Source of the DNA: an uncultured bacterium
GTDB taxonomy: Bacteria > Patescibacteriota > Minisyncoccia > Phycocordibacterales > GWA1-40-21
Direction: 5' to 3'
Length of the DNA stretch: 64,000 nt
Assembly: GCA_903831305.1 (NCBI GenBank)
Contig: CAIKXE010000004.1
Location: forward strand, 9,026-73,025
This document shows positions 1 to 58,150 of the stretch, in pieces (the first letter of the stretch is position 1; each line of letters begins with the position of its first letter). The notes beneath the pieces were generated by a model. It was given only the letters and a program-made list of their open reading frames with translations, did not search any database and was not told the origin of the DNA. Made by a program: the position numbers and the translations under genes.

Positions 1-475
1 CATACAAATCTACCTTTTCTCCGGTGGCGAAGCCAGAGGCAATCTCATCACAGCGCTCATTCCCGGCCACCCCCACGTGACCACCGACATAGTTCCACTT
101 AATCTTTCTATCTTTGATTAGTTCCGCCAGTTTTTCCCAGATATCTTTATTTAAAACTTCTTTTTTTTCTTTTGTTTTCCACCCATTTTTCTGCCAACCA
201 TAAATCCAGCCGGTAACACCGTTGATTAAATATTTAGAATCAGTATAGACTTCAACCTCCCTCAGTCCCCCCTCATCTGATAGGGGAAGGTGAGAAAGAG
301 CTTCCACGGCCCCGGTTAGCTCCATTCGATTATTAGTAGTCTTTTTTTCTCCACCGCCAAGCTCGATAACTTTTCCTTCCGGTAAAACTACCACGGCTCC
401 ATATCCCCCCGGTCCCGGATTCCCTTTTGACGCCCCATCTGTGAAAATTATTATTTTATTTTCCTTGTTTTGCAT
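1..475 (-). CDS. rnhA: Ribonuclease HI, partial (C-terminus lies beyond the window start)
   Basis: Reverse-strand translation from ATG (cat at about 473-475) gives MQNKENKIIIFTDGASKGNPGPGGYGAVVVLPEG...TTNNRMELTGAVEAL, typical of the RNase H fold. The ORF is open to position 1. Confidence 0.75.
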   Translation of the reverse strand, partial: MQNKENKIIIFTDGASKGNPGPGGYGAVVVLPEGKVIELGGGEKKTTNNRMELTGAVEALSHLPLSDEGGLREVEVYTDSKYLINGVTGWIYGWQKNGWKTKEKKEVLNKDIWEKLAELIKDRKIKWNYVGGHVGVAGNERCDEIASGFATGEKVDLY

Positions 476-482
476 AAAAAGA

Positions 483-2300: not shown

Positions 2301-2367
2301 TAGGTGATTATAGCAAAAATTTCATCTAATGACTTAAAAACATAAGAAATAGATACCCAAAATTCTA

Positions 2368-4107: not shown

Positions 4108-4188
4108 AGAGATAATAATAACATAAAATATGCTTTTGCACTTTAAATTGGAGAGCTTCCAGCATAGAAAATATAAAAAGTAAGCCTG

Positions 4189-12393: not shown

Positions 12394-12398
12394 GAAAA

Positions 12399-12468
12399 AT
12401 TACCTAAAAAAGTCTCTCTCCACTTAACACCAGAACTAATCGTTCCGTGAGACTTTTTTGGGTAATTT
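12399..12468 (+). terminator. Intrinsic terminator hairpin with a family-E conserved loop (TTAAC..CAGAACTAATCG)
   Basis: attacctaaaaaagtctc...gagacttttttgggtaat. The stem is followed by a T-tract, and the loop carries cacttaacaccagaactaatcgttccg. Confidence 0.5.
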
Positions 12469-18500: not shown

Positions 18501-21500
18501 GGTACTCCACCTAATGGTGGTATAACCACCACACTGGCCAGCCGACTCGGCAGTAATAGTAGTAGGTGGACAAGGGGCCGAAGGCACACCATGGACAGCA
18601 CTAGATGATGTAGACTCCTGAGTGCCGAGATATGATCTGACAGTAAAGGTATCAGTGGTGGAGGCCAATAGTGTATAGGCAAGAACGGGCGTAGTAACAA
18701 GAGGGGTGGTCTCAGTACCACGATAGACTTTGTAACCAGTAGTTCCAGGAACTGGGCGCCAAGAAAGAGTGGTGTACCCGCCACACTGGGCAGCAGTGGC
18801 GACAAGGCTAGTTGGCGCCCCAAGATTAAATTGAGCAGTAACAGTAGTGGAGGTACTCATAGTAAAGGTACAAGTGAGAGCTGTTCCACTGCAGACTCCT
18901 CCCTGCCAACCGACAAAAATATGACCAGCGGTGGAGGTGGCAGTGAGAGTGACGGTAGTACCATTAATAACCGAAGTAGAAGTAGCTAAACAAGTTGCCC
19001 CGCAGATAACTCCTCCACCAGACACTGTACCAGTTCCCGTTCCAGTTTTGGTGACAGTTAGGGTAGAGGTACAAGGTCCTGAAGGAACTGCGGTTGCCGA
19101 ACTCGAAAATGCAGACTCTGCATTACCATTGTCAACGGCTTTAACTCGAAAAGTTTGTCCAGCTGTACTACTTGCCACATAAGAAATGTTGACAGTATAA
19201 CGAAGAAGTGTAAAAACAACATCGTTACTACTGACATAGATATTGTATCCTTTAGCACCAGGAATAGTGCCCCAGTTTAGAGAAATATTTCCCCCGCAAG
19301 AGGCAGAAGTAGTAGCCGTAAGATTAGGTGCTCCAAGGCCAAACCTGGCAAAAACAGTAGTGGTTGTACTCATAGTAAAGGTACAAGTAAGAGCTGTGCC
19401 ACTACATCCCCCTCCTGACCAGCCGACAAAGGCACTACCAGTAGTAGGGGTGGCCGTGAGAGTGACAGTAGTACCATTAATAACCGAAGTAGAAGTCGCT
19501 AAGCAACCGGCTCCGCAAGAGATTCCTCCACCAGACACTGTACCAGTTCCCGTTCCGATTTTAGTGACGGTTAGGGTAGAGGTACATGAAACAGAAGGGA
19601 TAGGTGATACTGAGTTTGAGGCGAGTGACTCGGTTTGACCAACATCAACAGCCTTAACTTGAAAATATTGTCCAGTGCTACTTGCTATGTAAGAAGTGGC
19701 GGGAGTCTCATAAAGAGGAGTAAAAACCACGCCATCAATACTTTTATAAATATGATATCCAGCTGCTCCGGGTATAGCGTCCCAGTTTAAAGAAATGTTT
19801 CCCCCGCAAGAGGCAGAAGTAGTAGCCGTAAGATTAGGTGCTCCAAGGCCAAACCTGGCAAAAACAGTAGTGGTTGTACTCATAGTAAAGGTACAAGTGA
19901 GAGCGGTGCCACTGCACCCCCCTCCAGACCAGCCGATAAAAGTGTTTCCAGGAATTGGATTAGCGGTGAGTATAATATCAGCACCAGGAATTACGGTAAT
20001 ACTTGCATTCTTACAATCGGCATCACAATTAATTACTGGAGTAACAGGAATACTAGAAGTACTGGTGACCAAACCAGTTCCAGATGATCCACTTTTACTA
20101 ACAGTTAAGACAGGGTATGGGAGAGAACAGGTAGTACTGGCACCGCCATACTGACCATTACAAGTCCAAAACGAAGTATCAGCAGTGTCTTCCGTATTAG
20201 TAAAAGTGCCTTCAATAGCACAGGTATTTACAACCAACGGCAGACTACAAGCACCAGCGACGGGAACGGGACAAGGAGCTGATGGCACACCATTTACAGA
20301 ATTTGATGATACAGATTCTTGAGTATCAAGATATGATCTGACAGTAAAAGTATCCGTAGTAGAGGCTAATAGAGTATAGCTAGTAACCGTGGTGGTAACG
20401 AGAGGGGTGGTTTCCGTTCCACGATAGACTTTGTAACCAGTAACACCAGTAACCGGCTGCCAAGAAAGAGTGGTAAAGCCTCCACACTGACCTGGGGTGG
20501 CTTGGGCGGTGAGCGAACTAGGTGCAGAAATAGTTTTATACTGACAATTACTAACAATGGCTGGACAGATAAAAACTTCCGACCAAGTACCACCTACGTT
20601 TGTTATTGTCTCCGAACAAGCAATACCATTTGGAGGAATTTTCCCAGCACAGGGAATATAAGGATCTATTACTACTTCACAAGTAGAAGACGCCGAAATT
20701 GAGGAACTATCAGTAGCGGTTACTTCAACAGTATAACGAGTCTTGGTCTGACTATTATATTCCTGCCAAACAGTATTCAATGAATCACCAGGGAGACTAT
20801 TGAGCAAGCTTGTTGGATCACCCTTCCACGTATAGGTGTAAGGAGCGTCTCCATTGGAAGCAGATGCCGTCCACTGAAGAGCATCACCATAATTTTCATC
20901 ATATGAAGACTTACCTAAATACGAACAACTAACATCAAGCCCAGGCCCAACGACAACTTGATTTGAACAGTTACTAAAACTTTCCTTATTTGCCTGATCA
21001 ATCACTTTTACAGAAAAAGCATATGTCCCAGGAGTAGAATAAACAATAGTGGTATTTGCGCTGCTAGTCGTGGCCATTTCTAAACCACTACGCTCATCTG
21101 TAAAGCGATACCGGTATGGAGCTGTTCCATCTGTAGCCACAGCCGTCCAGGTAACCAGTTGCCCCACCTTAGCTGAAGACCTGTTTGCGGAACAAGAAAC
21201 TTTAGGGCTAGGAATAGGGGTAGGGGTAATGATACACGGAGCGGAAGGCACAGCAGTAGCAAAATTGGAAAAGGGTATGTTAGCCGGATCTACTCCCGTT
21301 ATTAGTGGTTTAATGGCAAAGGAGTCTCCAATGACCGCATTTAACTCATATGAAATACCCGTTACTGTAGAAACAAAAACGGTTCCCGACGCATTTTTTT
21401 TATAAACCTGATAACTTGTTATACCCGGAACAGAATTCCAGTTTAAAATAACAAAACCATCACAAACGTCAGATGTTTTTGCCCTAATCTCTACAGGTGG

Positions 21501-24500
21501 AACAACTGTAAATTTGATATAGCCCTTTCCCCGAGCCACTGTCTGCCAAATTTTAGATTCAAACGTCTCCCAATTTATCTCCACAAATTCAGGTACATAC
21601 CACTGATTATCTACTTGTAAAAGAATATAATACACACCAGGAGTAGATGGAGCAATAAAAGATGCTCCTTGTTTTTCTAAAGAAAAATTATTACTATTCC
21701 AACCTTTTGGACAATCAAACCCCTCGCAACCACCTCCTTCATAGCGCCCATTGTTTATAATATAAGTTTCTTTATTATAAGGGTCAGTACCTACGGGAGA
21801 AGAAGACTGTAAAATATCTGATCTTTTAATAACTAATTGTTGAGGAGCATTACTACAAGCATAGCTTGATAAACTACCGGTAATATAAAACTCTTCATTT
21901 GGTGAAAGGATGAGCTGAGGAGCCGTTATGGTCATGGTTGTCACATTTCCACCGATATTATAAGCTGTATTAGAAGTCCAGACCACACTATTGGCACTAG
22001 CACTATCAAACGCCAAGAAAGAAGAAATCAGAACTAACACAAAAACTAATATAGTTTTCATCTCCTTTCTTTTTCTAAAAATATAAACACTGATAGACAA
22101 AATAATAACAGACAGAACGCCGAGTAAATAAAAGATGGCTTTACTTGTCGTCTGGGTATTCCCAGTCACCTCATTAGTATAGGTCGTGATAATATTATCA
22201 TTATCATCAGTCACTTTTATATCAATAAATATATTTTGTGCAGAAGCTTTTGCCTTTAAGGAAATGTCCAAAGAGATACCTTTGTTAAAATCTAATTTTC
22301 GGCTATAAGCAGACACAATTTCCTTGTTTTCGTTTAGAATATTTATAAACAGATTAAGTGGATTTTCTTTTACTGTCGGACCTAGATCAATATCCAGTGG
22401 GGCTCCGGTATAGACCATGTTAAAATTATAAGTATCCCCAACCTTCAAAATATTTTTGTTCAATGAGACAGATTGGATAGCTGCCACTGACCCCGTCACA
22501 ATGTATCTTGCTAAAACAGTCGGAGTGACTTTAATAGCATCTGAGTTTAAAAAATCAACGGACAGCTCATAAACTCCTGACTTGTCTAAATATGAAATCC
22601 CCCACTGAAATAGTTTTGTAGTACTGGCAGAAATAGTTATAGGATCAAGCCTATAACTAGTAATCAAATTCCCCGATACGGTCCGATCATATATTTTAAT
22701 CTCAGGGGTTAAAACCTGTCCCGTAGTAAAAGGATTCTCTACATTTATGTAAAGTGTTCCTTTCTTATCTGGGGAGAGAGTCGGCCCCTCCTGCAATCCA
22801 TATTTTTTCTCTCCTATCGTTAGATAAGCATCACTGACCTTTAAAAGTGAGTTATCCCCAGTAACTTCAATAAACTTATCCTTCCAAGACAAAGGCATGC
22901 CGGCCGCAGTATAAAACTGAATTTGAATACCTAAGGCTTTTCCTGAAAAGTTAGTCGGCAGTAAATAACTAAAATTAATTTGTTTCATTTCTCCCGCCTT
23001 TAGAAAAACCGGGCCGTATGACTTACTATCATAAATGACGCCCGCCAAACCGTTTCTCCGATACTCCCCAGCCAAAGAAACCGTATATTTTAAATCTGGC
23101 AAATTATAGTCCTTATCATTTTTCAAAGTAAAAGTTCCTGTTACTTCTTCACCAGCGGAATATTTATCCTTGGGCAGAGAAATATTTTTAATCTCCACTG
23201 ATGGCAGATTATTCAGCTCCGCTATCTCAGCCGGAGTAGCCTGAACTTCATAAGTGTCACCATTATTGGTTTGAGCCAAGACCGTATTAGCTGAAAAAAT
23301 TAAACTGCAAGACACTCCAATAAACAAAAATGTTTTCAGCATTTTATTTTTTTTATAAAACACACTGATAATAATTATTGCTAATAAAACCAAAAGCCCT
23401 AACGCCCATAAAACACCAGGAAAGCCGGTCGAAACGTTATTGCCTGTTATTTCGTGATTATAAGAGGTAATTTTGTCACCCTTGGCATCGGTCACTACCA
23501 CATTTACAAATACCCTGCTAGCACCAGCATTAGCGGTCAAAGGAACTTCTAATACGACTCCTTTATTAAAATCTAATTTACCATTATAGCTTGATACGAG
23601 GCGAGCCTCCTCATTCAAAATAGTAACTGATACATTGAGTACATTTTCCTTAAGAACAGAGGGTTGATCTATATCTTTTGGTATTCCCGTATAAACCATC
23701 TTAAAATTAAACTCCTTACCAGATTTTAAAGTATTCTTGTCTAGAGTGATCTGCTGAATAGTGGCCATCGGTCCGCTGATAACATATTTGACCAAGGTGG
23801 TCGGTGCTACTTTCACTTTTTGGCTGTTATAAAAGTTTACGGCCACTTCATAAATACCAGGCTTATCTAAATATGAGATTTCCGAGGAAAAAGATTTTGT
23901 ACCCCTAGCAGAAATTGTAAATGGTTTTAAAGTGGTGGTTTTAAGCAATGCCCCCATGGCTGATTGGTCATAGATTTTAATTTCGGGGGTGAGGGTTCGT
24001 TCCTGATTAAAAGGATTTTCCAGCTTTACATTTATTACCGCTTTCTTAGTGGCTGACAAAGTCGGCCCTGATGATACAGAATATTTATTATTCCCAATAT
24101 TAAGATAAGCATCAGCTATTTTCATCATTGAGTTTCCACCTGTTACTTCAAGAGGTTTATCCTTCCAAACCAAAGGTAGCCCGGTAGAGGTATAGAGCTC
24201 TATGCGGAGTCCCAAGTTTGACCCAGCTACATTACTTGGTAACAAATAACCAAAACTAATTTCTTTTGTTTCACCAGACTTCAAAAAAACAGGACCGTAA
24301 AACCGGCTATCGTATATTTCTCTCGCCAGACCATCAGCCCCATACCCGCCTACTAAAGATATCTGGTATTTCAAATCAGGAATGCTGTAGCCTTTAATAT
24401 TTTTAATAACAAATACTCCCGCTACTCCTTCGCCTTGAGTATAGGTAGATTTGGCTGGAGAAATATCTTTGATCTCAATTACGGGCAGACTGTCTGTCTT

Positions 24501-24632
24501 GGCCAACTCCTCTAGAGTGGTTTGCACCAAATCCATATTTCGGTTTACTGTCTGGGCTGAGGCGCTAGGGAGAAAAAAGCCAGACCCCAACAAAACCAAA
24601 GCCAAGACAGAGATCAAGAGAAGTTTTTTCAT
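15558..24632 (-). CDS. Giant (3024 aa) polytopic surface protein: two paralogous modules of about 430 aa, then a module of about 2170 aa with FN3-like, PKD-like, B-repeat-like and Cys-rich WxWTC repeats
   Basis: A single uninterrupted frame. The N-terminus MKKLLLISVLALVLLGSGFFLPSASAQ is a signal peptide. There are internal TM + KKNK/RKRKE + signal-like segments at residues of about 415-450 and 845-880. PKD-like units carry (T/V)TWTAT.TGG.G.YTY.W. FN3-like units carry GYK(V/I)Y. The DGQKNGNETDVDCGGSC motif is present. Confidence 0.7.
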   Translation of the reverse strand: MKKLLLISVLALVLLGSGFFLPSASAQTVNRNMDLVQTTLEELAKTDSLPVIEIKDISPAKSTYTQGEGVAGVFVIKNIKGYSIPDLKYQISLVGGYGADGLAREIYDSRFYGPVFLKSGETKEISFGYLLPSNVAGSNLGLRIELYTSTGLPLVWKDKPLEVTGGNSMMKIADAYLNIGNNKYSVSSGPTLSATKKAVINVKLENPFNQERTLTPEIKIYDQSAMGALLKTTTLKPFTISARGTKSFSSEISYLDKPGIYEVAVNFYNSQKVKVAPTTLVKYVISGPMATIQQITLDKNTLKSGKEFNFKMVYTGIPKDIDQPSVLKENVLNVSVTILNEEARLVSSYNGKLDFNKGVVLEVPLTANAGASRVFVNVVVTDAKGDKITSYNHEITGNNVSTGFPGVLWALGLLVLLAIIIISVFYKKNKMLKTFLFIGVSCSLIFSANTVLAQTNNGDTYEVQATPAEIAELNNLPSVEIKNISLPKDKYSAGEEVTGTFTLKNDKDYNLPDLKYTVSLAGEYRRNGLAGVIYDSKSYGPVFLKAGEMKQINFSYLLPTNFSGKALGIQIQFYTAAGMPLSWKDKFIEVTGDNSLLKVSDAYLTIGEKKYGLQEGPTLSPDKKGTLYINVENPFTTGQVLTPEIKIYDRTVSGNLITSYRLDPITISASTTKLFQWGISYLDKSGVYELSVDFLNSDAIKVTPTVLARYIVTGSVAAIQSVSLNKNILKVGDTYNFNMVYTGAPLDIDLGPTVKENPLNLFINILNENKEIVSAYSRKLDFNKGISLDISLKAKASAQNIFIDIKVTDDNDNIITTYTNEVTGNTQTTSKAIFYLLGVLSVIILSISVYIFRKRKEMKTILVFVLVLISSFLAFDSASANSVVWTSNTAYNIGGNVTTMTITAPQLILSPNEEFYITGSLSSYACSNAPQQLVIKRSDILQSSSPVGTDPYNKETYIINNGRYEGGGCEGFDCPKGWNSNNFSLEKQGASFIAPSTPGVYYILLQVDNQWYVPEFVEINWETFESKIWQTVARGKGYIKFTVVPPVEIRAKTSDVCDGFVILNWNSVPGITSYQVYKKNASGTVFVSTVTGISYELNAVIGDSFAIKPLITGVDPANIPFSNFATAVPSAPCIITPTPIPSPKVSCSANRSSAKVGQLVTWTAVATDGTAPYRYRFTDERSGLEMATTSSANTTIVYSTPGTYAFSVKVIDQANKESFSNCSNQVVVGPGLDVSCSYLGKSSYDENYGDALQWTASASNGDAPYTYTWKGDPTSLLNSLPGDSLNTVWQEYNSQTKTRYTVEVTATDSSSISASSTCEVVIDPYIPCAGKIPPNGIACSETITNVGGTWSEVFICPAIVSNCQYKTISAPSSLTAQATPGQCGGFTTLSWQPVTGVTGYKVYRGTETTPLVTTTVTSYTLLASTTDTFTVRSYLDTQESVSSNSVNGVPSAPCPVPVAGACSLPLVVNTCAIEGTFTNTEDTADTSFWTCNGQYGGASTTCSLPYPVLTVSKSGSSGTGLVTSTSSIPVTPVINCDADCKNASITVIPGADIILTANPIPGNTFIGWSGGGCSGTALTCTFTMSTTTTVFARFGLGAPNLTATTSASCGGNISLNWDAIPGAAGYHIYKSIDGVVFTPLYETPATSYIASSTGQYFQVKAVDVGQTESLASNSVSPIPSVSCTSTLTVTKIGTGTGTVSGGGISCGAGCLATSTSVINGTTVTLTATPTTGSAFVGWSGGGCSGTALTCTFTMSTTTTVFARFGLGAPNLTATTSASCGGNISLNWGTIPGAKGYNIYVSSNDVVFTLLRYTVNISYVASSTAGQTFRVKAVDNGNAESAFSSSATAVPSGPCTSTLTVTKTGTGTGTVSGGGVICGATCLATSTSVINGTTVTLTATSTAGHIFVGWQGGVCSGTALTCTFTMSTSTTVTAQFNLGAPTSLVATAAQCGGYTTLSWRPVPGTTGYKVYRGTETTPLVTTPVLAYTLLASTTDTFTVRSYLGTQESTSSSAVHGVPSAPCPPTTITAESAGQCGGYTTIRWSTVPGVTGYYVYKGTNRIATTTATSTTATSSATDLFMVSSYLGAKESALSVGVFGAPSNPCNPACGTVADEVRPAGIDRSTPPDTAEEKCQVGIASAINGDANGPWNWTCTEVTSSVTCTVTPPPVPPPAYCGTFNATTTAIAPSTNEEKCRVGIPSDITGGIDAPWTWTCSSAGYVSSCSTTFPAAPLLASCSVSPSTAAIGETVTWTATPTGGVGDYTYSWVGPNLTGNNSAAATTSYSEADDYYGQVTVTDQDANEYTVSCDNHVTITPDPTVSCSGTRYYDDPLNIPSGKISWLATSYNTGNPNYFWNGDLSSTSATFLQNIVTGTTKYIANIKVIDSVNNKTATSSCEIQTNGVDGTCGVPKDTCPTGDFVDVADEGATYKWDCNGRYGGLNAQCSACMDTPTEPANTYCGSANGTARTTAPNTDTEKCDIGTASAVVGGSTGPWTWSCSNNCYVSTCSASAVVVPETATLSINRVGPGIVSDATTMILCGPAATDCVVTFPVGTTIALTATPDSGASFQGWSGGGCTGTGGCGFVLNTNTTINATFTPPPVVYPSCGSANGTTRTTAPSTLAEKCSIGTSGVVSDGTDSWSWTCANQGNEVSCSATKSGTFTVSCTVAPATVLTGDTVTWTATSTGGVGAYTYSWAGTNLTGKNTAIVTTSYATAGTYYGIATITRGTETSSANCVNSASENNVIVRDHLTASCSVTPATALTGQTVTWTATSTGGIGAYTYLWAGTNINGATTSVVNTSYTSVKNYTATSTINSGTETLSAGCPNLSVTTPPSPTCTDGQKNGNETDVDCGGSCPACEVSCTENCGGNPDEGDYCSSTAGECIGGATPSQSPYISGDWTCTKGTTISYCSGVPGSDLSCTVELTSPSSPIINRGSNSLWTATVYGPDGTYQYSWYIINRNNPITVANPHGTPISGSSTDNTYYYFLRTTGLNTVTAKVTDGTKVAYCSNNPSVTVVESGGSNSEF
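18780..20160. repeat. Intragenic tandem DNA repeats (period about 519 bp; 2 full copies plus partial copies) inside the giant gene
   Basis: 19264-19420 and 19782-19940 are more than 95% identical (cccagttta.agaaat.tttcccccgcaagaggcagaagtagtagccgtaagattaggtgctccaaggccaaacctggcaaaaacag...). 18790-19100 is a more diverged copy. These encode the repeated protein unit of about 173 aa, GAPNLTATTSASCGGNISLNW...TLTVTK.GTGTGTVSGGG..CGA.CLATSTSVINGTTVTLTAT. Confidence 0.8.
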
Positions 24633-26179: not shown

Positions 26180-26335
26180 CCACTAAATCCCCACCTTAGT
26201 TAAGGCGGGGTGGTGAGGCTTTGCGAACCGGGGCGGTGTGTCTGTAGGGAGTACCGAGTCAGCGAGGGGAGGTGGTATAAAAAAACGGAAACAAACAAGG
26301 GCGGGAGGGGGTGCAGCACCCCCTCCCGCCCTTTC
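26180..26335 (+). repeat. GC-rich structured intergenic element, family C copy 1
   Basis: Hairpin ccccaccttagttaaggcgggg plus the motif gggagtaccgagtcagcgaggggaggtggt (also present at about 32246 and about 46938). A perfect 15-bp-stem hairpin ggcgggagggggtgc/gcaccccctcccgcc follows. Confidence 0.6.
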
Positions 26336-26712: not shown

Positions 26713-26800
26713 GAGAGCAAACATATTTGATTTTAAAATGTCTGGCCGAAGTTCTGACGAGGAGATCCGAGGACTTTTAAAATTAAATATGTTTGCTCTC
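26713..26800 (+). repeat. Family A miniature palindromic element, copy 1 (core about 64 bp with 14-bp TIRs, nested in a copy-specific 16-bp inverted repeat)
   Basis: gagagcaaacatattt | gattttaaaatgtctggccgaagttctgacgaggagatccgaggacttttaaaattaaat | atgtttgctctc. The core recurs at 36721-36820 (minus) and 41144-41236 (plus). This copy ends 15 nt upstream of the hppA ATG. Confidence 0.7.
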
Positions 26801-28830: not shown

Positions 28831-28837
28831 CTCCCCT

Positions 28838-28900
28838 TTCCCCACCTTAGTCAAGGCGGGGTGTCTGTTCTGACAGACGGGGCGGTTGGTCAGGTATTGA
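28838..28900 (+). repeat. GC-rich hairpin element related to family C (lacks the gagtaccgagtc motif)
   Basis: ccccaccttagtcaaggcggggtg plus the gtctgttctgacagac hairpin plus ggggcggttggtcagg, immediately after the hppA stop. It shares ccccacctta...aaggcgggg and cggggcggt with the element after nusA. Confidence 0.5.
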
Positions 28901-30093: not shown

Positions 30094-30103
30094 AATCACC
30101 AAC

Positions 30104-30180
30104 AAAAAACCTCCAGCAAACCTTCGCAGCGATTAGTTCTGACGTTAAGCGAAGAAGGTTAGGCTGGAGGTTTTTTGTTT
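30104..30180 (+). terminator. Long intrinsic terminator hairpin; the loop carries the family E core (reverse orientation)
   Basis: aaaaaacctccagc...gctggaggttttttgttt with nested stems ccttcgc/gcgaag(aag)g. The loop agcgattagttctgacgttaa is the reverse complement of ttaacgtcagaactaatcgct. Confidence 0.6.
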
Positions 30181-30186
30181 ACAAAC

Positions 30187-30260
30187 GGAAGCCCAGCAAA
30201 ACAATCTTCTTCGTTTAACGGAGTACCTAATCACTACGAAGATTGTTTACCGGGCTTCCA
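30187..30260 (+). other. Second long hairpin upstream of tig, with a family E-like variant loop
   Basis: ggaagccc/gggcttcc and aaacaatcttc/gaagattgttt stems. The loop is ttcgtttaacggagtacctaatcactacgaa, and ccattttgcatttt follows. Confidence 0.45.
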
Positions 30261-32113: not shown

Positions 32114-32149
32114 ATGAAACAGTATAGCGTAAAACAAACACAAAACACA

Positions 32150-32280
32150 ACCGCCCCGGTCATCGGAATGACCACCCCGCCTTGACTAAGGCGGGGAAAG
32201 GGAACAGGAGCAGGTAGGGTCCCCTTTCTCCTCCTTGATTAAGGAGGAGTACCGAGTCGGCGAGGGGAGGTGGTGGGGTG
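32150..32280 (+). repeat. GC-rich structured intergenic element, family C copy 2 (between divergent rsmE and clpP)
   Basis: Palindrome ccccgccttgactaaggcgggg. Hairpin ctcctccttgattaaggaggag. Motif ggagtaccgagtcggcgaggggaggtggt, about 65 nt upstream of the clpP ATG. Confidence 0.6.
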
Positions 32281-32338
32281 GTTGTGTTTTTTGTTTCTTT
32301 ATTATAATCTTTACTCATTATCAACTAATATAAAATTT

Positions 32339-36720: not shown

Positions 36721-36820
36721 CAAAGTAACAAACGTCAAAATTATTTAATTTTAAAAGTCCTCGGATCCCCTCGTCAGAACTTCGGCCAGACATTTTAAAA
36801 TCAAACAATTTTTACTTTGC
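36721..36820 (-). repeat. Family A miniature palindromic element, copy 2
   Basis: The reverse complement contains gattttaaaatgtctggccgaagttctgacgaggggatccgaggacttttaaaattaaat, flanked by caaagtaa/ttactttg. It sits just 3' of the RNHCP gene. Confidence 0.7.
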
Positions 36821-37181: not shown

Positions 37182-37252
37182 TCGGGGCGTGGTGTAACGG
37201 TAGCATTCATGATTTGGGATCATGCAGTTCGGGTTCAAATCCCGGCGCCCCG
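37182..37252 (+). tRNA. tRNA-Pro (anticodon UGG)
   Basis: Acceptor cggggcg/cgccccg, anticodon stem catga/tcatg with loop tttggga, T-arm tcggg-ttcaaat-cccgg, discriminator A. Confidence 0.85.
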
Positions 37253-37300
37253 ACAAGTTAAACGGCCTCAAGCCGTTTTTAACTTGTCGGGGCGCAAAAA
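37245..37300 (+). other. Extended inverted repeat that includes the tRNA-Pro 3' acceptor strand, plus a second small hairpin
   Basis: gcgccccgacaagttaaacggc ctcaa gccgtttttaacttgtcggggcgc, followed by aaaaatgc gactaa gcattttt. Confidence 0.5.
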
Positions 37301-37557: not shown

Positions 37558-38043
37558 TTATAATATAATATCCTCCATATAATTCACCTTGGCCTGCATA
37601 CTTTTTAGGTCCAAATACACTACCGCCACATCAAACTGCCAGTCTACCTCAGTGTTTACCCTTCCAGTTACATGTGCCTGCCCGCCAACTCGGAGGGAAA
37701 CAGCGGTATTCCCTCTGTAACCAAGCAAAAACGTCTGTATTACCCTACTCAGGCGCTTTAACTTCCAAGGGTGGAGGTTATCTTCCGGTCGATATTTATC
37801 CATTTCATACGAAACAGGTGATCCCGGTTTAGTAATATAGTCTGGCAAATGAGAAACAGTTTTAACCTCAATGAAGTGCAGCTTTTGGCCTTTCCGGGCA
37901 ATAATGTCTATTTCACCCCATTTCTTTAGGTAATTCCGCTCAATCACCTCAAAACCACGTTTCACCAGAAACCTACAGGCAATATTCTCGCCAATATCCC
38001 CTATTTTTCGCTTTTCTGTCCTTTTGTCTTCCATTTGTTTCAT
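37558..38043 (-). CDS. YraN/UPF0102-family PD-(D/E)xK nuclease-like protein (with an internal insertion)
   Basis: GDIGENIACRFLVKRGFEVIERNY...GEIDIIARKG...HFIEVKT is the YraN signature. At 161 aa it is longer than the roughly 120 aa typical. Confidence 0.65.
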   Translation of the reverse strand: MKQMEDKRTEKRKIGDIGENIACRFLVKRGFEVIERNYLKKWGEIDIIARKGQKLHFIEVKTVSHLPDYITKPGSPVSYEMDKYRPEDNLHPWKLKRLSRVIQTFLLGYRGNTAVSLRVGGQAHVTGRVNTEVDWQFDVAVVYLDLKSMQAKVNYMEDIIL

Positions 38044-38064
38044 ATGTAACGTTAGAAATCATCA

Positions 38065-38160
38065 CCGGGAATATAATTTTTGGAGTGCGCATAATTTTCT
38101 GCTGAAAATTTGCTCTCTCTCGCCTACCCGGCTGTGAAGCCTCCAAAATCATATTCCCGG
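38065..38160 (+). repeat. Family B conserved structured element, copy 1
   Basis: ccgggaatat | aattttggagtgcgcataattttctgctgaaaatttgctctctctcgcctacccggctgtgaagcctccaaaatcat | attcccgg. The core of about 78 nt is at least 95% identical at about 45770-45882 (minus) and 57198-57290 (plus). It contains the inner palindrome aattttc tgc tgaaaatt. Confidence 0.75.
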
Positions 38161-38167
38161 TATGATT

Positions 38168-38830
38168 TTAGATCTTACGTAAAATCATCTCAAACTTGGG
38201 CTGAGACTTAATGTCCTGAATATCCTTATAAACCACAAAGAAGCGGTATGGGCAAAGCTTTTCAATATCCTCCGGCTTATAAAAGTAATAATATTTCTCA
38301 TCACCCAGGTTCGTAGTCAATTTTTCCTGATAATCACCGTATTTACTAGAAAAAATACACAAAACACCCCCCGGTTTAAGCATTTTGTGGCATTTATCTA
38401 TAATACTAGCCGTTTCCGCCATGTTCATATGCACAAAAAAGGAAAAGGCAAAAATAATACCAAACGTTTCATGAACCTGCCCGCCAACTCCTAGGGTAAC
38501 CTCCATCTGCCGAACATCAACTAACCTAAAGTCCACCCCCGGATTTCTAGCTTTTGCTTCCTTTAAAAGTCCGGCCGAGGCATCTAAACCGATATAATTA
38601 TCCTTACCAAGTCGAGAAACGATATACTCAGCATCCCTACCACTTCCACAGCCAAGCTCCAGCACCTTATCTGATCCACTCTCATTTAGCTTGATGGCTC
38701 TATCAATATCCACCGTACTGACCCCATGACCATCAAAACGTTCCGCATAAAACTGCGGGTTTTTATCATAGGCTTCAATTGTTTTCTTATTTTTGTCCAT
38801 TATTTCCTTCATTTGTTTCATCTGAAACAC
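38168..38830 (-). CDS. Class I SAM-dependent methyltransferase
   Basis: VLELGCGSGRD is motif I, and there is a downstream acidic motif II. 220 aa. No DNA-MTase motifs (no DPPY, no PC). Confidence 0.7.
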   Translation of the reverse strand: MFQMKQMKEIMDKNKKTIEAYDKNPQFYAERFDGHGVSTVDIDRAIKLNESGSDKVLELGCGSGRDAEYIVSRLGKDNYIGLDASAGLLKEAKARNPGVDFRLVDVRQMEVTLGVGGQVHETFGIIFAFSFFVHMNMAETASIIDKCHKMLKPGGVLCIFSSKYGDYQEKLTTNLGDEKYYYFYKPEDIEKLCPYRFFVVYKDIQDIKSQPKFEMILRKI

Positions 38831-41140: not shown

Positions 41141-41143
41141 GGA

Positions 41144-41236
41144 AAAAGCCCAGAATTGTTTGATTTTAAAATGTCTGGCCCTAGTCTGCGACGGGAGATC
41201 CGAGGACTTTTAAAATTAAATAATTCTGGGCTTTTT
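41144..41236 (+). repeat. Family A miniature palindromic element, copy 3, nested in the loop of the cca terminator stem
   Basis: aaaagcccagaatt | gtttgattttaaaatgtctggccctagtctgcgacgggagatccgaggacttttaaaattaaat | aattctgggctttttat. The outer 14-bp stem plus T-tract looks like an intrinsic terminator. Confidence 0.7.
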
Positions 41237-41249
41237 ATACATAATATTT

Positions 41250-41320
41250 AAAATCCCCAGGAAAATCCTCTCCGCTTAACGTCAGAACTAATCGCTCCGA
41301 GGAAATTCCTGGGGATTTTA
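41250..41320 (+). other. Hairpin with the family E conserved loop core
   Basis: aaaatccccagg...cctggggatttt is the stem. The loop ctccgcttaacgtcagaactaatcgctccgagg carries the same 22-nt core as the loop at 30125-30160. Confidence 0.55.
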
Positions 41321-42082: not shown

Positions 42083-42096
42083 GGAGCGGGGGGCTT

Positions 42097-42195
42097 TCCG
42101 CTATGATGGCGGACGCGAGTGGGAGAACGCGTGAGTTTCTCCCCTTTATTCAGTGCAAGATCTAAATCGTGCCTTGATAGAGAAAAACTATTTAT
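42097..42195 (+). repeat. Family D conserved element, copy 1 (about 95 nt; TATAAT-like box, then hairpin gggagaa..ttctccc and T-tract)
   Basis: ccgctatgatggcggacgcgagtgggagaacgcgtgagtttctcccctttattcagtgcaagatctaaatcgtgccttgatagagaaaaactattt. It is about 90% identical to 44442-44538, and a partial copy lies at 43621-43680. Confidence 0.75.
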
Positions 42196-43620: not shown

Positions 43621-43680
43621 CCGGTATAATGCCGGCCGTTAAGGGAGAACGCGTAAGTTTCTCCTCTGTCCTCCGCTAAG
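43621..43680 (+). repeat. Family D element, partial or divergent copy
   Basis: ccggtataatgccggccgttaagggagaacgcgtaagtttctcctc. It shares the tataatg.cgg box and the gggagaacgcgt.agtttctcc hairpin. Confidence 0.6.
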
Positions 43681-44370: not shown

Positions 44371-44441
44371 AAATACAGTTTTTGTCCCCGTTTGCACTAT
44401 AAGCAAATGGAGAGTCCAGAGGAAGCAGAGCCTCTCAAATT

Positions 44442-44538
44442 CCGCTATAATGACGGACGCAGATGGGAGAACGCGTGAGTTTCTCCCCTTTATTCAGTGC
44501 AGGATCTAAATCATGCTTTGATAGAGGAAAACTATTTT
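44442..44538 (+). repeat. Family D conserved element, copy 3
   Basis: ccgctataatgacggacgcagatgggagaacgcgtgagtttctcccctttattcagtgcaggatctaaatcatgctttgatagaggaaaactatttt. It overlaps the 3' end of the convergent xthA. Confidence 0.75.
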
Positions 44539-45769: not shown

Positions 45770-45882
45770 GGGATGATAAAATAATATGATTTTGGAGGCT
45801 TCACAGCCGGGTAGGCGAGAGAGAGCAAATTTTCAGCAGAAAATTATGCGCACTCCAAAAATTATACTATTTTATCATCCCC
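45770..45882 (-). repeat. Family B conserved structured element, copy 2
   Basis: gggatgataaaataatat | gattttggaggcttcacagccgggtaggcgagagagagcaaattttcagcagaaaattatgcgcactccaaaaatt | atactattttatcatccc. The core is in reverse orientation, with copy-specific 18-bp flanks. Confidence 0.75.
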
Positions 45883-45883
45883 C

Positions 45884-46831
45884 TTAACTCTTATTATGAA
45901 ACTTTTTGTGAATGTCACGGAGATGCTTATCCGTCACATGAGTGTAGATCTGCGTGGTGATAATACTGGAGTGGCCAAGCATGGTCTGGACCGAGCGAAT
46001 ATCCGCCCCATTGCTCAGTAAATCTGTAGCAAAGACGTGCCGGATGACGTGCGGGGTGACTTTTTTAGTAATACCCGCAATAGTGGCATAACGTTTGACT
46101 ATCCTTTCCACGGACCGGCCGGTCAGAGCGGTGACCTTCCCAGAGATGGATTGCTCCCGGTTCTTATCAATCGTCACAAATAATGCTTCAGACAAATCTT
46201 TACGTACCGCCAAGTAATCCCGGATGGCTTTCTTGGCATCATCAGACAGGAAAACCACGCGCACTTTTCCTCCCTTACCGCGAATAGAAAATTCATCCAA
46301 ATTCAAATCTAAATCCGTGGTCAAAGAACAAAGCTCAGATACACGTAAACCAGTAGAAAAAAGTAACTCCAAAAGTGCTTTATCTCGCGCTCGGCGCTCC
46401 AGATTTTGCTCTTGATTCGGCGCTTCAAGCAAGCGCTGTAATTCTTGGAGGGAAATCAGATCAATGGATCGCTCGCCGACTTTAGCGAGCTCGATATTGT
46501 CTGCTGGCAGGGAAGTGACGCCTCGGCGCGCCAAAAATTTCAGAAAGACGCGCAAAGCAATCAGGTAATAGTTTTGCGTCTTCTTGGCCATGGTGCCACC
46601 GGCCCGCGCTGGTGTACCAAACAAGTGGTAGGCCTTGGCTCCCGGCCGGCGGTTCAGCCAAATGCGGAATTCGCGGATTTTCTCATTGGTGATGTCCTTG
46701 GGATCCGTGATTTTAGTCTGCTCCAGGAAAAAAGTCAGATACCGGTCATAGCGGTCAATGGTTTTCAGGGCTCGGCCTTTTTCTATTTCCAAATATTCCA
46801 AAAATTGAGTTTTATATTCCTTGATATTCAT
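45884..46831 (-). CDS. Xer-like tyrosine site-specific recombinase
   Basis: An N-terminal SAM-like core-binding domain (MNIKEYKTQFLEYLEIEKG). The catalytic domain has R (LRVSEL), H.R (HVIRHVFAT) and LGHSSIITTQIYTHV (catalytic Y). The start is at the internal Met of the track ORF. Confidence 0.8.
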   Translation of the reverse strand: MNIKEYKTQFLEYLEIEKGRALKTIDRYDRYLTFFLEQTKITDPKDITNEKIREFRIWLNRRPGAKAYHLFGTPARAGGTMAKKTQNYYLIALRVFLKFLARRGVTSLPADNIELAKVGERSIDLISLQELQRLLEAPNQEQNLERRARDKALLELLFSTGLRVSELCSLTTDLDLNLDEFSIRGKGGKVRVVFLSDDAKKAIRDYLAVRKDLSEALFVTIDKNREQSISGKVTALTGRSVERIVKRYATIAGITKKVTPHVIRHVFATDLLSNGADIRSVQTMLGHSSIITTQIYTHVTDKHLRDIHKKFHNKS

Positions 46832-46861
46832 GTCGTACAATATTATACACCACCTCGTCAT

Positions 46862-46970
46862 CAGAATGCCACTCCTCCTAAGAATAGGAGGAGATGAAGC
46901 CCACCCGAAGTTACGTCTTACTCTCCGCCTATCTTAGGAGGAGTACCGAGTCTGCGAGGGGAGGTGGTAT
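46862..46970 (+). repeat. GC-rich structured intergenic element, family C copy 3 (between divergent xer and rpsO)
   Basis: Hairpins ctcctcctaagaataggaggag and ctccgcctatcttaggaggag. Motif ggagtaccgagtctgcgaggggaggtggt ends about 45 nt upstream of the rpsO ATG. A 10-codon uORF (MGLAFLGETC) starts 3 nt after the SD-like ggaggtggt. Confidence 0.6.
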
Positions 46971-47010
46971 GGGCCTTGCATTTTTAGGAGAAACGTGCTA
47001 ACATCCTAAA

Positions 47011-53837: not shown

Positions 53838-53848
53838 AACAAAAAAAC

Positions 53849-53910
53849 CATCATATATTCTCTTCACTTAACGAGGACTAATCGTTCAGAGAACATATGA
53901 TGTTTTTTTA
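53849..53910 (+). terminator. Terminator hairpin between convergent genes, with a family E loop core
   Basis: catcatatattctc...gagaacatatgatgtttttttagg. The loop ttcacttaacgaggactaatcgttca shares ttaacg..ctaatcg with the loops at 12425, 30125 and 41262. Confidence 0.5.
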
Positions 53911-55182: not shown

Positions 55183-57150
55183 ATGGAAGAAAAAAAGGTA
55201 AAAAATGATCATTTGGAGGGACTAAACCCCGCCCAAAAAGAGGCCGTTTTACACACAAACGGACCCCTTTTAATCTTTGCCGGGGCGGGAGCAGGCAAAA
55301 CCAAGACCATCACTTGCCGAATAATGCATTTAATCAAGTCTGGGGTAGAGCCCAAGAACATTTTAGCTATTACCTTTACTAATAAAGCGGCCAAAGAGAT
55401 GCGTGACCGAGTATTAACTGCCTTAGAAAAGGAAAGGGGGTTGGCAAATACTCCTTACCATGAAAAACCCTTTATTAGTACTTTTCACTCCCTCGGGGTC
55501 CATATTTTAAAAGAAAACAGCCGAGAGCTCGGTCTCACCAGGAACTTTTCTATTTTTGATAAGAGTGATTCACAAAAAACCGTCCGGGACATTGTCCGAG
55601 ATATGGGTCTGGACCCTAAACAGCATGAACCAAATAAGATTTTGAACATCATTTCTCGGGAAAAAGGTGATTTAAAAAATGCCCAAGACTTTGCGGAGTC
55701 TATCAGTGGGGAAAACCACACCGCGGCTCATGGCTTGATCTCCCAAATCTGGACCGAGTATGAGAAGAGGCTACGAGCAGAAAAAGCTTTAGATTTTGAT
55801 GATTTATTGCTCCAGACATATAAATTATTAAAAAATCACCCTGCCATCTTAGAAAAATATCAGAACTTGTGGCAATACATCCATATAGACGAGTATCAAG
55901 ACACCAACAAAGTGCAATATATGACGGTGAAACTATTGGCGACCAAGCACCAAAACTTGTGCGTGGTGGGGGATATTGACCAGAATATTTACAGCTGGCG
56001 TGGAGCAGATATTAAAAATATTTTAAATTTTGAAAAAGATTATCCTCAAGCCCTGGTAGTACTGCTTGAAGAAAACTATCGTTCCACCCAAAATATTTTA
56101 GCGGTAGCTAATAGCATCATTAAAAAAAATACTAATCGTGTAGAAAAAAATCTATTTACTAAAAATGCTGAGGGAGATAAGGTCTCCCTTTATGCTGGTT
56201 ACAATGAAGCTGAGGAAGCACATTATATTGCTAATAAATGCAAAGAATTAATAGCCACTGGTATCTCGGCGCGGGAGATTGCCGTTTTATATCGGGCCAA
56301 CTTTCAGTCCCGCGCCCTGGAGGATGCCTTCCTAACTAAAAGTGTCCCGTATCAAGTGCTCGGCACAAAATTCTTTGAGAGAAAAGAAGTCAAAGATATC
56401 GTTTCTTTTGTCCGCGCCGGACTCAATCCCGAAAGCATGACAGATATAAAAAGAATCATAAATGTGCCGGCTCGCGGTATCGGCAAGGTCACTATTTTAA
56501 AAATATTTGCTGGCCAAAAAGAGGAGATTCCACTGGCCACCAGACTAAAAGTAGATCAATTTTATAATTTACTAAAAGATATTGGCAAGCTGGCCCACGA
56601 GACCAAACCATCAGAAGTAATCAAATTCATCATCAAGGAAAGTGGCATTGAAAAGGAGCTCCGGGACGGGAATGATGAAGAGAAAGAAAGGCTGGAAAAC
56701 ATGCGTGAATTAGCCACTTTAGCTATAAAATACGACCATTTTCCGCAGGGTGAGGGGATAGAAAAGCTGGTGGAAGAAGCGGCTCTAGCGACAGACCAGG
56801 ACAGCCTAGAAAAAAATGAAAATGCGGTCAAACTGATGACGGTACATGCTTCCAAGGGCCTAGAATTTGATTATGTTTTTATCACCGGACTGGAAGAAGA
56901 TTTGTTTCCGCATCAGCGGATGAACAGTGTAAAAAATAAAGAAGACAGCGAGGAGGAAAGGCGATTATTTTATGTGGCCCTCACTCGAGCGCGCAAGAAA
57001 GTATTTTTAACTTATGCTAATACTCGAACTATTTTTGGCTCGGCCCAAGTAAACACCCCGTCACAATTTATTGGTGATATTGAAGAGAGCTTTATTGAAG
57101 CGGATCAGACATTTGAATATCGGGAGAAAATAATTTATTTGGAGTTGTAG
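55183..57150 (+). CDS. pcrA: ATP-dependent DNA helicase PcrA/UvrD family
   Basis: Walker A AGAGAGKTKTI. The SF1 helicase motifs are VDEYQDTN and YRANFQSR. Confidence 0.85.
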   Translation: MEEKKVKNDHLEGLNPAQKEAVLHTNGPLLIFAGAGAGKTKTITCRIMHLIKSGVEPKNILAITFTNKAAKEMRDRVLTALEKERGLANTPYHEKPFISTFHSLGVHILKENSRELGLTRNFSIFDKSDSQKTVRDIVRDMGLDPKQHEPNKILNIISREKGDLKNAQDFAESISGENHTAAHGLISQIWTEYEKRLRAEKALDFDDLLLQTYKLLKNHPAILEKYQNLWQYIHIDEYQDTNKVQYMTVKLLATKHQNLCVVGDIDQNIYSWRGADIKNILNFEKDYPQALVVLLEENYRSTQNILAVANSIIKKNTNRVEKNLFTKNAEGDKVSLYAGYNEAEEAHYIANKCKELIATGISAREIAVLYRANFQSRALEDAFLTKSVPYQVLGTKFFERKEVKDIVSFVRAGLNPESMTDIKRIINVPARGIGKVTILKIFAGQKEEIPLATRLKVDQFYNLLKDIGKLAHETKPSEVIKFIIKESGIEKELRDGNDEEKERLENMRELATLAIKYDHFPQGEGIEKLVEEAALATDQDSLEKNENAVKLMTVHASKGLEFDYVFITGLEEDLFPHQRMNSVKNKEDSEEERRLFYVALTRARKKVFLTYANTRTIFGSAQVNTPSQFIGDIEESFIEADQTFEYREKIIYLEL

Positions 57151-57197
57151 GGTAGCTTTTTTCTCTCTAGATTGGTAGGATTAGAACGTCTCGGCTA

Positions 57198-57290
57198 GGA
57201 TAACATAATTTTGGAGTGCGCATAATTTTCTGCTGAAAATTTGCTCTCTCTCGGCTACCCGCCTGTGAAGCCTCCAAAATCATATTATCC
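57198..57290 (+). repeat. Family B conserved structured element, copy 3
   Basis: ctaggataacat | aattttggagtgcgcataattttctgctgaaaatttgctctctctcggctacccgcctgtgaagcctccaaaatcat | attatcctag. It lies between pcrA and rsmA. The outer flank is a copy-specific palindrome. Confidence 0.75.
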
Positions 57291-57307
57291 TAGCTGATAC
57301 TTAAAAC

Positions 57308-58150
57308 ATGGAAAATATAATTGCAAAAAAATCACTTGGCCAGAACTTTTTGAAATCCAAAACAGCTTTATTAAAAATGATTGAGGCCGGAGAAATAAAT
57401 AATGAGGATACGGTGCTTGAAGTGGGCCCGGGGAAGGGGGTGCTGACCGAGAAACTACTAGAAAAAGCCAAGAAGGTGATTGCGGTGGAAAAAGATGACC
57501 GCCTGATTTCTTTTTTACAAGAAAAGTTTGCCACGGAAATTTCTGCTGGTAAATTGCAAATCATTCATGATGATATTTTAAATTTTGATTTAAAACGCAA
57601 CCTCACCCCAGCACTCTCCTTAACTAATGAGAGGGAGAAGAGGTACAAAATAATCGCTAATATCCCTTATTACATCACCGGACAATTCTTGCGTCAGTTT
57701 TTAGAAACGGATAATCAGCCGGAGCGGATAGTGGTGATGGTCCAAAAGGAGATCGCCCAGCGCATCATTGCTAACAACCCGACCAAGGCGGGGGAAAAGA
57801 AGGAGAGCTTGCTGTCAATGAGTGTGAAGGCTTTTGGGACGCCTAAAATGATCATGAAAGTGGATAAAGAGAACTTTTCCCCCGCCCCCAAGGTAGATTC
57901 TGCTATTCTCCTAATTTCTGGCATTTCTAAAGGCTTTTTCACGGATAACCAGATAACGGAGAAGGACTTTTTTGCCACCATCCACGCTGGTTTTGCCCAC
58001 AAAAGAAAGATACTAGCGAGTAATCTAAAATCCGTGTTTCCTGGTGTTGATTGGGCTGAGCGGATGGAGAAGGCGGGATTAAATATAAAAGTGCGAGCGG
58101 AGGACCTCTCCCTAGTGGACTGGATGAAACTCATTTCCATTGTAATCTAA
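57308..58150 (+). CDS. rsmA: 16S rRNA (adenine1518/1519-N6)-dimethyltransferase
   Basis: SLGQNFL, VLEVGPGKGVLTE and IANIPYYIT are the KsgA/Dim1 motifs. Confidence 0.85.
   Translation: MENIIAKKSLGQNFLKSKTALLKMIEAGEINNEDTVLEVGPGKGVLTEKLLEKAKKVIAVEKDDRLISFLQEKFATEISAGKLQIIHDDILNFDLKRNLTPALSLTNEREKRYKIIANIPYYITGQFLRQFLETDNQPERIVVMVQKEIAQRIIANNPTKAGEKKESLLSMSVKAFGTPKMIMKVDKENFSPAPKVDSAILLISGISKGFFTDNQITEKDFFATIHAGFAHKRKILASNLKSVFPGVDWAERMEKAGLNIKVRAEDLSLVDWMKLISIVI

Follow-up and report, generated by a model that had tools for sequence, protein, structure and literature searches.

A family of intergenic hairpin elements with a strongly constrained core in Candidatus Saccharibacteria

We analyzed a 64,000-nt stretch of DNA from an uncultured bacterium of the Patescibacteriota (contig CAIKXE010000004.1, positions 9,026 to 73,025), here called the window, which contains three copies of a hairpin element that we designate family B. 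Family B is a dispersed, non-coding and previously undescribed element family of a Candidatus Saccharibacteria clade, with about 20 copies. Each unit is approximately 100 to 115 nt long, a 76-nt core capping an outer stem of 9 to 20 bp, and it is the whole hairpin, not the core alone, that is present or absent at orthologous sites. Family B copies are old at many sites, and their core is strongly constrained and structurally supported. The explanation we favor, at somewhat less than even confidence, is that family B is an old, once-mobile hairpin element resembling miniature inverted-repeat transposable elements (MITEs) and REPINs, with a core under strong constraint. Saccharibacteria and other bacteria of the Candidate Phyla Radiation (CPR) have very small genomes with few recognized mobile elements or regulatory RNAs.

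The three copies and their common structure

An exact 45-nt core probe matched the window at 38078–38122 (+), 45816–45860 (−) and 57209–57253 (+), where 100 shuffles gave an expectation of 0 matches. Over 84 nt (38072–38155 and 45783–45866), copies 1 and 2 are 100% identical, with 76/76 core positions in common, and copy 3 is 97–98% identical to the others over 78–80 nt, with 73/76 core positions in common. Copy 3 lacks one T and carries a compensatory change from GCC..GGC to GGC..GCC, in which two substitutions swap a G-C for a C-G pair in the small hairpin P3. An initial annotation, made from the sequence alone, had described a near-identical core in three intergenic copies, each with its own self-complementary flanks. 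The probe matches and the gene context bear this out, and the complementary flanks proved to be longer than first quoted.

Copy 1 (38055–38169, +) lies between a YraN/UPF0102 gene (37558–38043, −) and a methyltransferase gene (38168–38830, −), and since both of these are on the minus strand its core as written is antisense to transcription. The 5′ arm of its outer stem, GAAATCAT-c-ACCGGGAATAT (38055–38074), pairs with the 3′ arm, ATATTCCCGGT-ATGATTTT (38151–38169); the stem directly adjoins a TAA stop codon, and the 3′ arm overlaps the stop codon of the methyltransferase gene (38168–38170). The copy is delimited by its sequence, its fold and a covariance-model match at 38062–38163 (115 bits). 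Copy 2 (45770–45881, −) begins 2 nt past the stop codon of an XerC/D-like gene (45884–46861, −) and is sense to its flanking genes. Its core (45788–45863) is identical to that of copy 1 and sits between the 5′ arm GGGATGATAAAATAGTAT (45864–45881) and the 3′ arm ATATTATTTTATCATCCC (45770–45787), which pair with one G.T; the hairpin is followed by GTTTTTATG, and the covariance model matches at 45775–45876 (119 bits). Copy 3 (57194–57294, +), also in sense orientation, is found between uvrD/pcrA (55183–57150, +) and rsmA (57308–58150, +). Its arms, GCTAGGATAACAT (57194–57206) and ATATTATCCTAGC (57282–57294), pair with one C.A and enclose a core (57207–57281) that has one T fewer before helix P1 and the GGC..GCC variant of P3. 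The covariance-model match spans the entire hairpin (57194–57294, 116 bits), and the ortholog of this copy in another species is L006.

The core forms a three-way junction. P1 is TTTTGGAG.GC paired with GC.CTCCAAAA, which contains the terminal inverted repeat of the initial annotation. P2 is GCAtAATTTTC-TGCT-GAAAATTTGC, that is, GCA-t-AATTTTC, TGCT and GAAAATT-TGC, and includes the inner palindrome AATTTTC-TGCT-GAAAATT, likewise recognized at first reading. P3 is GSC-TACCC-GSC. The first junction strand is TCTCTCTC and the second is T(T)G(C/T)GAA. In copy 1 the core occupies 38075–38150 (+), with P1 pairing 38078–38085 to 38141–38148 and 38087–38088 to 38139–38140, the P2 hairpin at 38089–38113 with loop TGCT, and the P3 hairpin at 38122–38132 with loop TACCC. 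Together with its flanks, copy 1 folds with −47 kcal/mol on the plus strand (z = −9.0) and −49.7 kcal/mol on the minus strand (z = −7.9).

Across 17 copies, the structure composed of P1, P2, P3 and the outer stem is 95% paired, versus 40–49% when the partners are slid. The outer stem alone is 92.9% paired versus roughly 45% in the slid controls, and its sequence differs in every copy. Double-sided changes were found at 11 outer-stem pairs, 1 P2 pair and 1 P3 pair, although some of the outer-stem covariation among paralogs may come from comparing stems that are not homologous, and covariation can also be mimicked by template switching. Copy L048 898–998 contributes 2 compensatory pairs in P1, TTTCAGAG/CTCTGAAA. 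Helices with compensatory changes, as are generally looked for in structured non-coding RNAs (ncRNAs), are therefore present, and the loops and junction strands are almost invariant across copies. The ATAT..ATAT that borders the core varies between copies as ATGT/ACAT, AGTAT/ATACT and AGTTT/AAACT. Since it varies as an inverted and not as a direct repeat, it is not a target-site duplication.

The P2 loop, read as the 7-nt CUGCUGA (38099–38105 in the window), fits the anticodon-loop pattern Y-U-NNN-R-A on a 5-bp A-U stem, with variants GUU, GGU and CUGCUAA. This likeness is probably a coincidence.

Distribution, age and the unit of gain and loss

A pattern search of GTDB representatives found 2 copies in Saccharibacteria metagenome-assembled genomes, and a metagenome scan found 18 loci, of which 14 are Saccharibacteria-type copies. 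Proteins identical to those of the window are present on ENA, JGI and NCBI metagenome contigs. A covariance model (R1) made from 17 copies and run on 273 kb of DNA added 2 full copies, L024 595–695 and L048 898–998, and 3 divergent relatives that we term B2 (L051 13573, L020 2181 and L023 3890), in which the P2 hairpin is kept exactly while P1 and P3 differ. The P2 hairpin motif TTTTCTGCT(G/A)AAAA also occurs in further distinct elements belonging to several sister families. About 17 copies beyond the three of the window are thus found in related genomes and metagenomes, and these are the additional homologs on which the initial annotation had made its case depend. Many short contigs from several samples terminate inside the element, copy 2 being among the broken sites, as would be expected of a genomic repeat. 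Family B therefore breaks metagenome assemblies of its host organisms.

The initial annotation could assign the core to no RNA family, and our searches agree. Rfam 15 at gathering thresholds returned only 4 tRNAs in the whole window, a relaxed scan of copy 1 gave only chance matches with E > 1 (e.g., plant miRNA precursors), and the sister elements in L051 had no Rfam match. The core was compared by eye with hammerhead and twister ribozymes and matched neither. An origin in phages or plasmids was rejected, as there were no matches in IMG/VR viral contigs, INPHARED phages or PLSDB plasmids. In the literature we found no account of such repeats in Saccharibacteria or Patescibacteria.

A wider G+C-rich family, represented by L012, L013 and L017 from soil metagenomes, was considered and set aside. 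All three sequences contain the 22-nt search pattern and are laid out as two hairpins; the elements at L012 253–330, L017 2261–2321 and L013 931–997 lie just past gene ends, start with TTGGAGTGCGC, continue with two hairpins and end with CCCTCCAAAA. L012 and L017 are clearly related to each other. With the family B covariance model they score at most 14.8 bits (E 1.9), and they have no complementary flanks; we treat them as unrelated or undecidable.

Several sites are occupied in more than one species: site A, between the methyltransferase and YraN genes (window, L019, L020); site B (window, L006); site C, from tuf to rpsJ (L010, L014, L025); and site F (L007/L008, L016). Site I, after XerC, is occupied in the window and L048, with a remnant in L051. 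For pairs of orthologous sites, the four-fold degenerate positions of the flanking genes are only 33–68% identical, which is near saturation, and the cores are 92–100% identical, a figure that is inflated to some degree because metagenome copies were retrieved with an exact 22-nt pattern. The comparison of the window with L048 is free of this ascertainment because L048 was found through the XerC protein, and here the core is identical at 76/76 positions versus 55% identity at four-fold sites. The outer stems diverge at about the rate of the flanking sequence yet stay paired, as in ACCGGGAATAT/ATATTCCCGGT versus ACCAGCAATAT/ATATTACTGGT. All copies of the window's lineage (the three window copies, both L048 copies, L019 and L023) have the variant TGTGAAG, and other lineages have TGCGAAG or TTGCGAAG. 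This lineage-wide sharing points to homogenization of copies within a genome. A core that remains nearly unchanged despite saturated synonymous sites implies either an undescribed functional RNA or DNA module or a mobile element of unusual persistence and spread.

Orthologous sites in relatives, reached via the flanking proteins, show what is gained and lost. At site A, family B is found in the window, L019 and L020, a different element that we call Family A in L051, another core in L026 and another long hairpin in L029–L031, and the empty alleles, with gaps of 6 nt (L027/L028), 18 nt (L049) and 7 nt (a third contig), contain no hairpin. At site I, L051 retains a decayed 3′ remnant directly after the XerC stop codon, no other family was seen, and the 47-nt empty alleles of L049/L050 have no comparable hairpin. 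The 3′ end of an M23-peptidase gene carries family B in L024 and a family-d core in a different hairpin in the window, and is empty in L049 and L051. Finally, the divergent promoter gap between rpsO and xerC is occupied by family B in L048, by a relative with the same P2 hairpin (B3) in L051 and by a different family in the window, and is empty in L049; all four states apparently meet at one junction after ...TTGCAAG. Filled and empty sites in relatives, as are known for MITEs, therefore exist at 4 orthologous sites, and the empty alleles at all four lack a hairpin. Where different families occupy one site, their outer stems are not in common.

L019 and L026 are near-identical genomes (YraN 99% and methyltransferase 95% amino acid identity) in which the entire hairpin cassette has been cleanly exchanged; the exchange lies between the stop codon and GTTACATATG, and the flanks are 84–100% identical per 50-nt window right to both junctions. 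We infer that cassettes can be exchanged between strains through homologous recombination in flanking genes, which fits the slightly lower identity of L019 and L026 in the last 100 nt of the methyltransferase gene. Copies at different loci also share outer-stem sequence: TTACCAGCAATAT in L019 at site A and TCACCAGCAACAT in L048 898–998 in the rpsO-xerC gap, with further sharing in L014 (TTCTTCAGCAATA) and L006 (TTCTTCAGATAATA). Similarly, the Family A stem AAAGCCCAGAATT is found in both the window copy at 41143 and the L051 copy at site A. This sharing of stems between loci indicates that the stem belongs to the element and moves with the core. These loci, where one and the same site can be filled, empty, swapped or flipped, are a clean natural data set on how long stems arise, stay paired and invert.

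One contig, L002 (ENA ERZ18658644 scaffold_21764, 1–3642), encodes an identical XerC-like protein and has ftsZ upstream where rpsO is otherwise found. This implies a rearrangement breakpoint in the rpsO-xerC gap, a hot spot of these elements.

Competing explanations and their evidence

In the explanation we favor, family B copies would have arisen when the whole hairpin was duplicated or transposed, since 8–17 nt of outer stem are still common to some copies at separate loci, and would have persisted at the same loci across species. Selection, together with homogenization or conversion within genomes, would keep the core almost invariant, while the outer stem would drift near the neutral rate, its pairing maintained via compensatory or template-switch changes; the latter may also invert the core and lengthen the stem into host sequence. 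The elements lie where a compact genome has its few neutral gaps, either immediately past stop codons or in the space separating divergent promoters. If the element is transcribed along with its host gene, whichever way it faces, about 20–30 paired positions would result from the outer stem together with P1, a stretch predicted to be near-continuous on the core-antisense strand. Such a duplex could act as a 3′-end or intercistronic stabilizer, as an RNase III-type processing site or as a terminator, roles that are known for Correia and ERIC elements, and the invariant core may be where a trans-acting protein docks, whether a host factor or a mobility enzyme that has been domesticated. Most likely, the element forms a duplex at gene boundaries that is recognized by a trans factor.

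The hairpin MITEs (Correia/NEMIS of Neisseria; ERIC/IRU of enterobacteria; RUP, BOX and SPRITE of pneumococcus) resemble family B in being about 100–150 nt long, non-coding, multi-copy and intergenic, often just past genes, in forming very stable hairpins in either orientation, in presence/absence between relatives and in co-transcription with neighboring genes (PMC3184786). MITEs have conserved terminal inverted repeats and target-site duplications, whereas family B has variable ends and a conserved centre: the outermost 6–15 bp differ between copies, and there is no direct repeat at filled/empty junctions. Also unlike MITEs, cross-species conservation of the core far exceeds what neutrality would predict, and no parent insertion sequence or transposase was found among the scanned open reading frames (ORFs) of the window. 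REP and REPIN sequences (repetitive extragenic palindromes) are hairpin-forming intergenic repeats of about 100 nt that persist for a long time at orthologous sites and are thought to be maintained by a single trans-acting RAYT enzyme. Family B shares the approximate 100-nt length, the intergenic hairpin form and the long life at orthologous sites, but REPINs conserve the stem (two inverted REPs) and leave the loop free, which is the reverse of what is seen here, and no RAYT or HUH/Y1 gene was found among the scanned ORFs. We regard family B as a new variant among intergenic hairpin-repeat elements, one that falls outside the defining tests of MITEs, REPINs, Rfam families and invertons.

A number of observations weigh against an old, once-mobile element. 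An unchanging 76-nt core in the face of saturated synonymous sites would not be expected of a purely selfish repeat and favors function, and the retrieval of metagenome copies by exact pattern makes the core appear more conserved than it is. No transposase, reverse transcriptase or HUH nuclease was found by Pfam among ORFs at 1–35 kb or in precomputed calls at about 36–57 kb, with the ORFs at 15558–24632, 42–44 kb and 58–64 kb unscanned. There are neither terminal inverted repeats conserved at the true ends nor target-site duplications. Strain-level contigs with identical neighboring proteins are all filled and show no difference in presence/absence or orientation, and hence no sign of current mobility. 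The transcription signals fit imperfectly as well. An intrinsic terminator has a G+C-rich stem followed directly by a U-run; here copy 2 and roughly half of the related copies are followed by a T-run, and copy 3, L007 and the tuf-rpsJ copies have none; a consensus scan detected no terminator at any of the three window copies; and copy L048 898–998 is located not at a 3′ end but in a gap with divergent promoters on its two sides. Termination cannot then be the whole role, since about half of the copies lack a T-run and one is not at a 3′ end. Finally, transition mismatches are G.U on the core-antisense strand in 19 versus 5 cells, or about 13–14 versus 5 independent events, a bias that is suggestive after allowing for shared ancestry. 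This asymmetry tracks core orientation and not the host transcript, for which the model above has no explanation; simple transcription-linked deamination was rejected as its cause on the same grounds.

The strand asymmetry counts in favor of a rival explanation, in which family B is a functional structured RNA, cis-acting or small. Its activity would reside in the three-way junction, the outer stem would serve as a closing helix that can covary freely, and the active strand would be the reverse complement of the core as first written. We consider this possible but not probable. Near-invariant cores beside near-saturated four-fold sites, compensatory changes in P1, P2, P3 and the closing stem, invariant loops and junctions, and the recurrence of the P2 hairpin in several sister families are all as expected of such an RNA. 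The core-antisense strand folds better in 15/16 copies, and the G.U count favors this same strand, on which a conserved A.C of the sense strand becomes a G.U that makes P1 continuous with the outer stem. However, the orientation to host genes is sense in 13 copies and antisense in 5, with 1 more copy between divergent genes, and the core is inverted between orthologs with homologous stems both at site A (antisense in the window, sense in L019 and L020) and at site C (sense in L025, antisense in L010 and L014). Such inversion at two orthologous sites argues against a simple co-transcribed ncRNA, since read-through would yield complementary RNAs at different loci. The strand favored by G.U is the non-mRNA strand in most copies, no promoter is conserved in or beside the element, promoter and terminator consensus sequences in or beside the three window copies are not above chance, and the Rfam searches were negative even at relaxed thresholds, so that neither a constant transcribed strand nor a consistent transcription signal is seen. 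The G.U bias itself is marginal once shared ancestry is considered, and template switching can give compensatory changes without selection at the RNA level (PMC8794818). The ncRNA with a covarying terminal stem put forward in the initial annotation is therefore upheld in part: the family is real, its core is constrained and its helices are compensated, but the two orientations, the inversion at orthologous sites and the lack of transcription signals above chance speak against it.

A more ambitious proposal, which we hold to be unlikely, is that family B and its sister families together represent a new class of CPR hairpin cassette elements. The three-way-junction core would be read as a folded single strand (core-antisense, single-stranded DNA or RNA) by a dedicated trans factor; the elements would spread without terminal repeats or target duplications, their long stems being built by copying host flanks; and they would create terminator-like hairpins at gene ends in genomes otherwise almost devoid of intergenic DNA. 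Integron attC sites are recognized as a folded single strand with conserved structure and mostly free sequence, and with the strand set by unpaired or extrahelical bases. This strand choice is a possible parallel to the conserved bulge and the one-strand G.U of family B, but attC sites have conserved ends, a variable centre and cassette arrays beside an integrase, none of which is found here.

In another alternative, which we judge quite improbable, only the core and a short proximal stem move, and host DNA supplies the copy-specific stems during insertion or later, as the nascent strand folds on the element's own inverted repeat and copies the flank, with the palindrome growing outward into local sequence. 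Small inversions are known to occur in chloroplast hairpins. Template switching at hairpins yields one-step compensatory changes, stem extension and inversion between arms (Monttinen and Loytynoja 2022, PMC8794818), all of which are seen here, and inversion of the core between homologous stems is the pattern that hairpin-mediated template switching would be expected to give. The right arm of the L026 element includes a 9-nt complement of AAAATTTAG, the ancestral methyltransferase end that is still present in empty alleles; the L020 stem takes in the last codon and stop of the methyltransferase gene (TATAA/TTATA); and the stems of several copies begin 0–4 nt from a host stop codon or enter it. 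In addition, L019 and L048 898–998 share the proximal 12–17 nt of their stems and differ in the distal 6–7 bp, which pair nonetheless. Against this, the site I arm GGGATGAT... has no counterpart in the empty allele of L049, the clearest case, L026, belongs to a different core family, and AT-rich overlaps of 5–9 nt could occur by chance. A stem arm also lies inside the host gene in L023, whose homologs end in ...IEAVK plus 0–3 residues, so that their C-termini speak neither for nor against a native coding origin of the arm. Template switching is moreover a mutational process and not an element family, and it explains neither the conservation of the core nor the spread of copies.

The second proposal of the initial annotation, a miniature mobile element targeting the loops of hairpins that are already in place, for example terminators, is highly unlikely. 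Perfect, long AT-rich hairpins flanked by an A-run and a T-run serve as ordinary terminators in this genome (15489–15534 and 52146–52189), many family B outer stems resemble them, the Family A copy at 41143–41236 lies inside a textbook AAAAAGCCCAG...CTGGGCTTTTT stem, and different core families occur at the same sites. Such targeting has a model in IS1397 and ISKpn1, which insert at existing stem-loops in REP sequences (PMC3184786). An element of this kind leaves a recognizable empty hairpin behind, unlike the empty sites of family B. Group IIC introns, for their part, sit next to terminators. The search for an intact hairpin without its core returned the four hairpin-free empty sites described above, which leaves insertion into existing loops unsupported. 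The near-identical genomes L019 and L026 swap the whole hairpin, families that share one site have different outer stems, and no target-site duplication is present. Even the terminator-like stem of Family A moves with its core, because the stem recurs with the same core at another locus, in L051.

A switch by DNA inversion (inverton), with the complementary flanks as recombination sites and a core that would flip to regulate its neighbors, is suggested by the position of the core between inverted repeats, its two orientations at orthologous sites and the tyrosine recombinase gene adjoining copy 2, but it is extremely unlikely: at each site the strain-level contigs that reach the element (4–7 per site, partial contigs included), taken from different samples, all show the same orientation, by which phase-variable inversion was rejected, no promoter was detectable in the core, and the recombinase is a conserved chromosomal XerC/D-type gene found beside only 1 of the 3 copies.

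Sister hairpin families and other features of the window

The window contains at least 13 hairpins with a conserved tip, in four or more families, and the other core families have the same architecture as family B and occur at the same sites. Family A is found at 26713–26800, 36731–36818 and 41143–41236, and also in L051 at about 16606–16700; each copy has its own complementary stem around a conserved core of about 60 nt (TTTGATTTTAAAATGTCTGGCC...GGACTTTTAAAATTAAA). The stem of its 41143 copy lies directly after the gene for the CCA-adding enzyme, and nearly the same stem and core are present between the methyltransferase and YraN genes of L051. In family d (12397–12468, 30101–30179, 30199–30250, 41249–41320 and 53842–53909), long hairpins with unrelated, perfectly paired stems are tipped by a core of about 30 nt (CTCTCCACTTAACACCAGAACTAATCG...), which can face either way; the 53842–53909 copy is the one at the M23-peptidase 3′ site, where L024 has family B.

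G+C-rich palindromic families (TCCCCGCCTTAGTTAAGGCGGGG; GGAGTACCGAGTCNGCGAGGGGAGGTGG) occur at 6427–6455, 26186–26333, 28834–28888, 32132–32300 and 46862–47010. Some of these repeats are combined in compound hairpins, and one repeat occupies the rpsO-xerC gap that holds family B in L048. Unrelated long hairpins are present at the same hot-spot sites in relatives (L026 2346–2500, L029 2187–2279 and L051 13171–13300), and in L026 the element's right arm contains a complement to the final 9 nt of the gene upstream.

Elsewhere in the window, a minus-strand ORF of 3024 amino acids (15558–24632) contains internal repeats of about 510 nt with approximately 80% identity (16.7–20.5 kb). Two adjacent pilin-like genes (2368–5199) have an N-terminal methylation motif and segments that are 77–82% identical, and PilB- and PilC-type genes are found at 12477–15453. 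A 98-nt repeat with the palindrome GGGAGAACGCGTGAGTTTCTCCCC occurs at 42096–42193 and 44440–44537 with 91% identity, and a third, partial copy is present at 43643–43667. Finally, a perfect 18-bp hairpin, GCGCCCCGACAAGTTAAA/TTTAACTTGTCGGGGCGC, at 37245–37295 overlaps the 3′ end of a tRNA-Pro gene (37183–37254).

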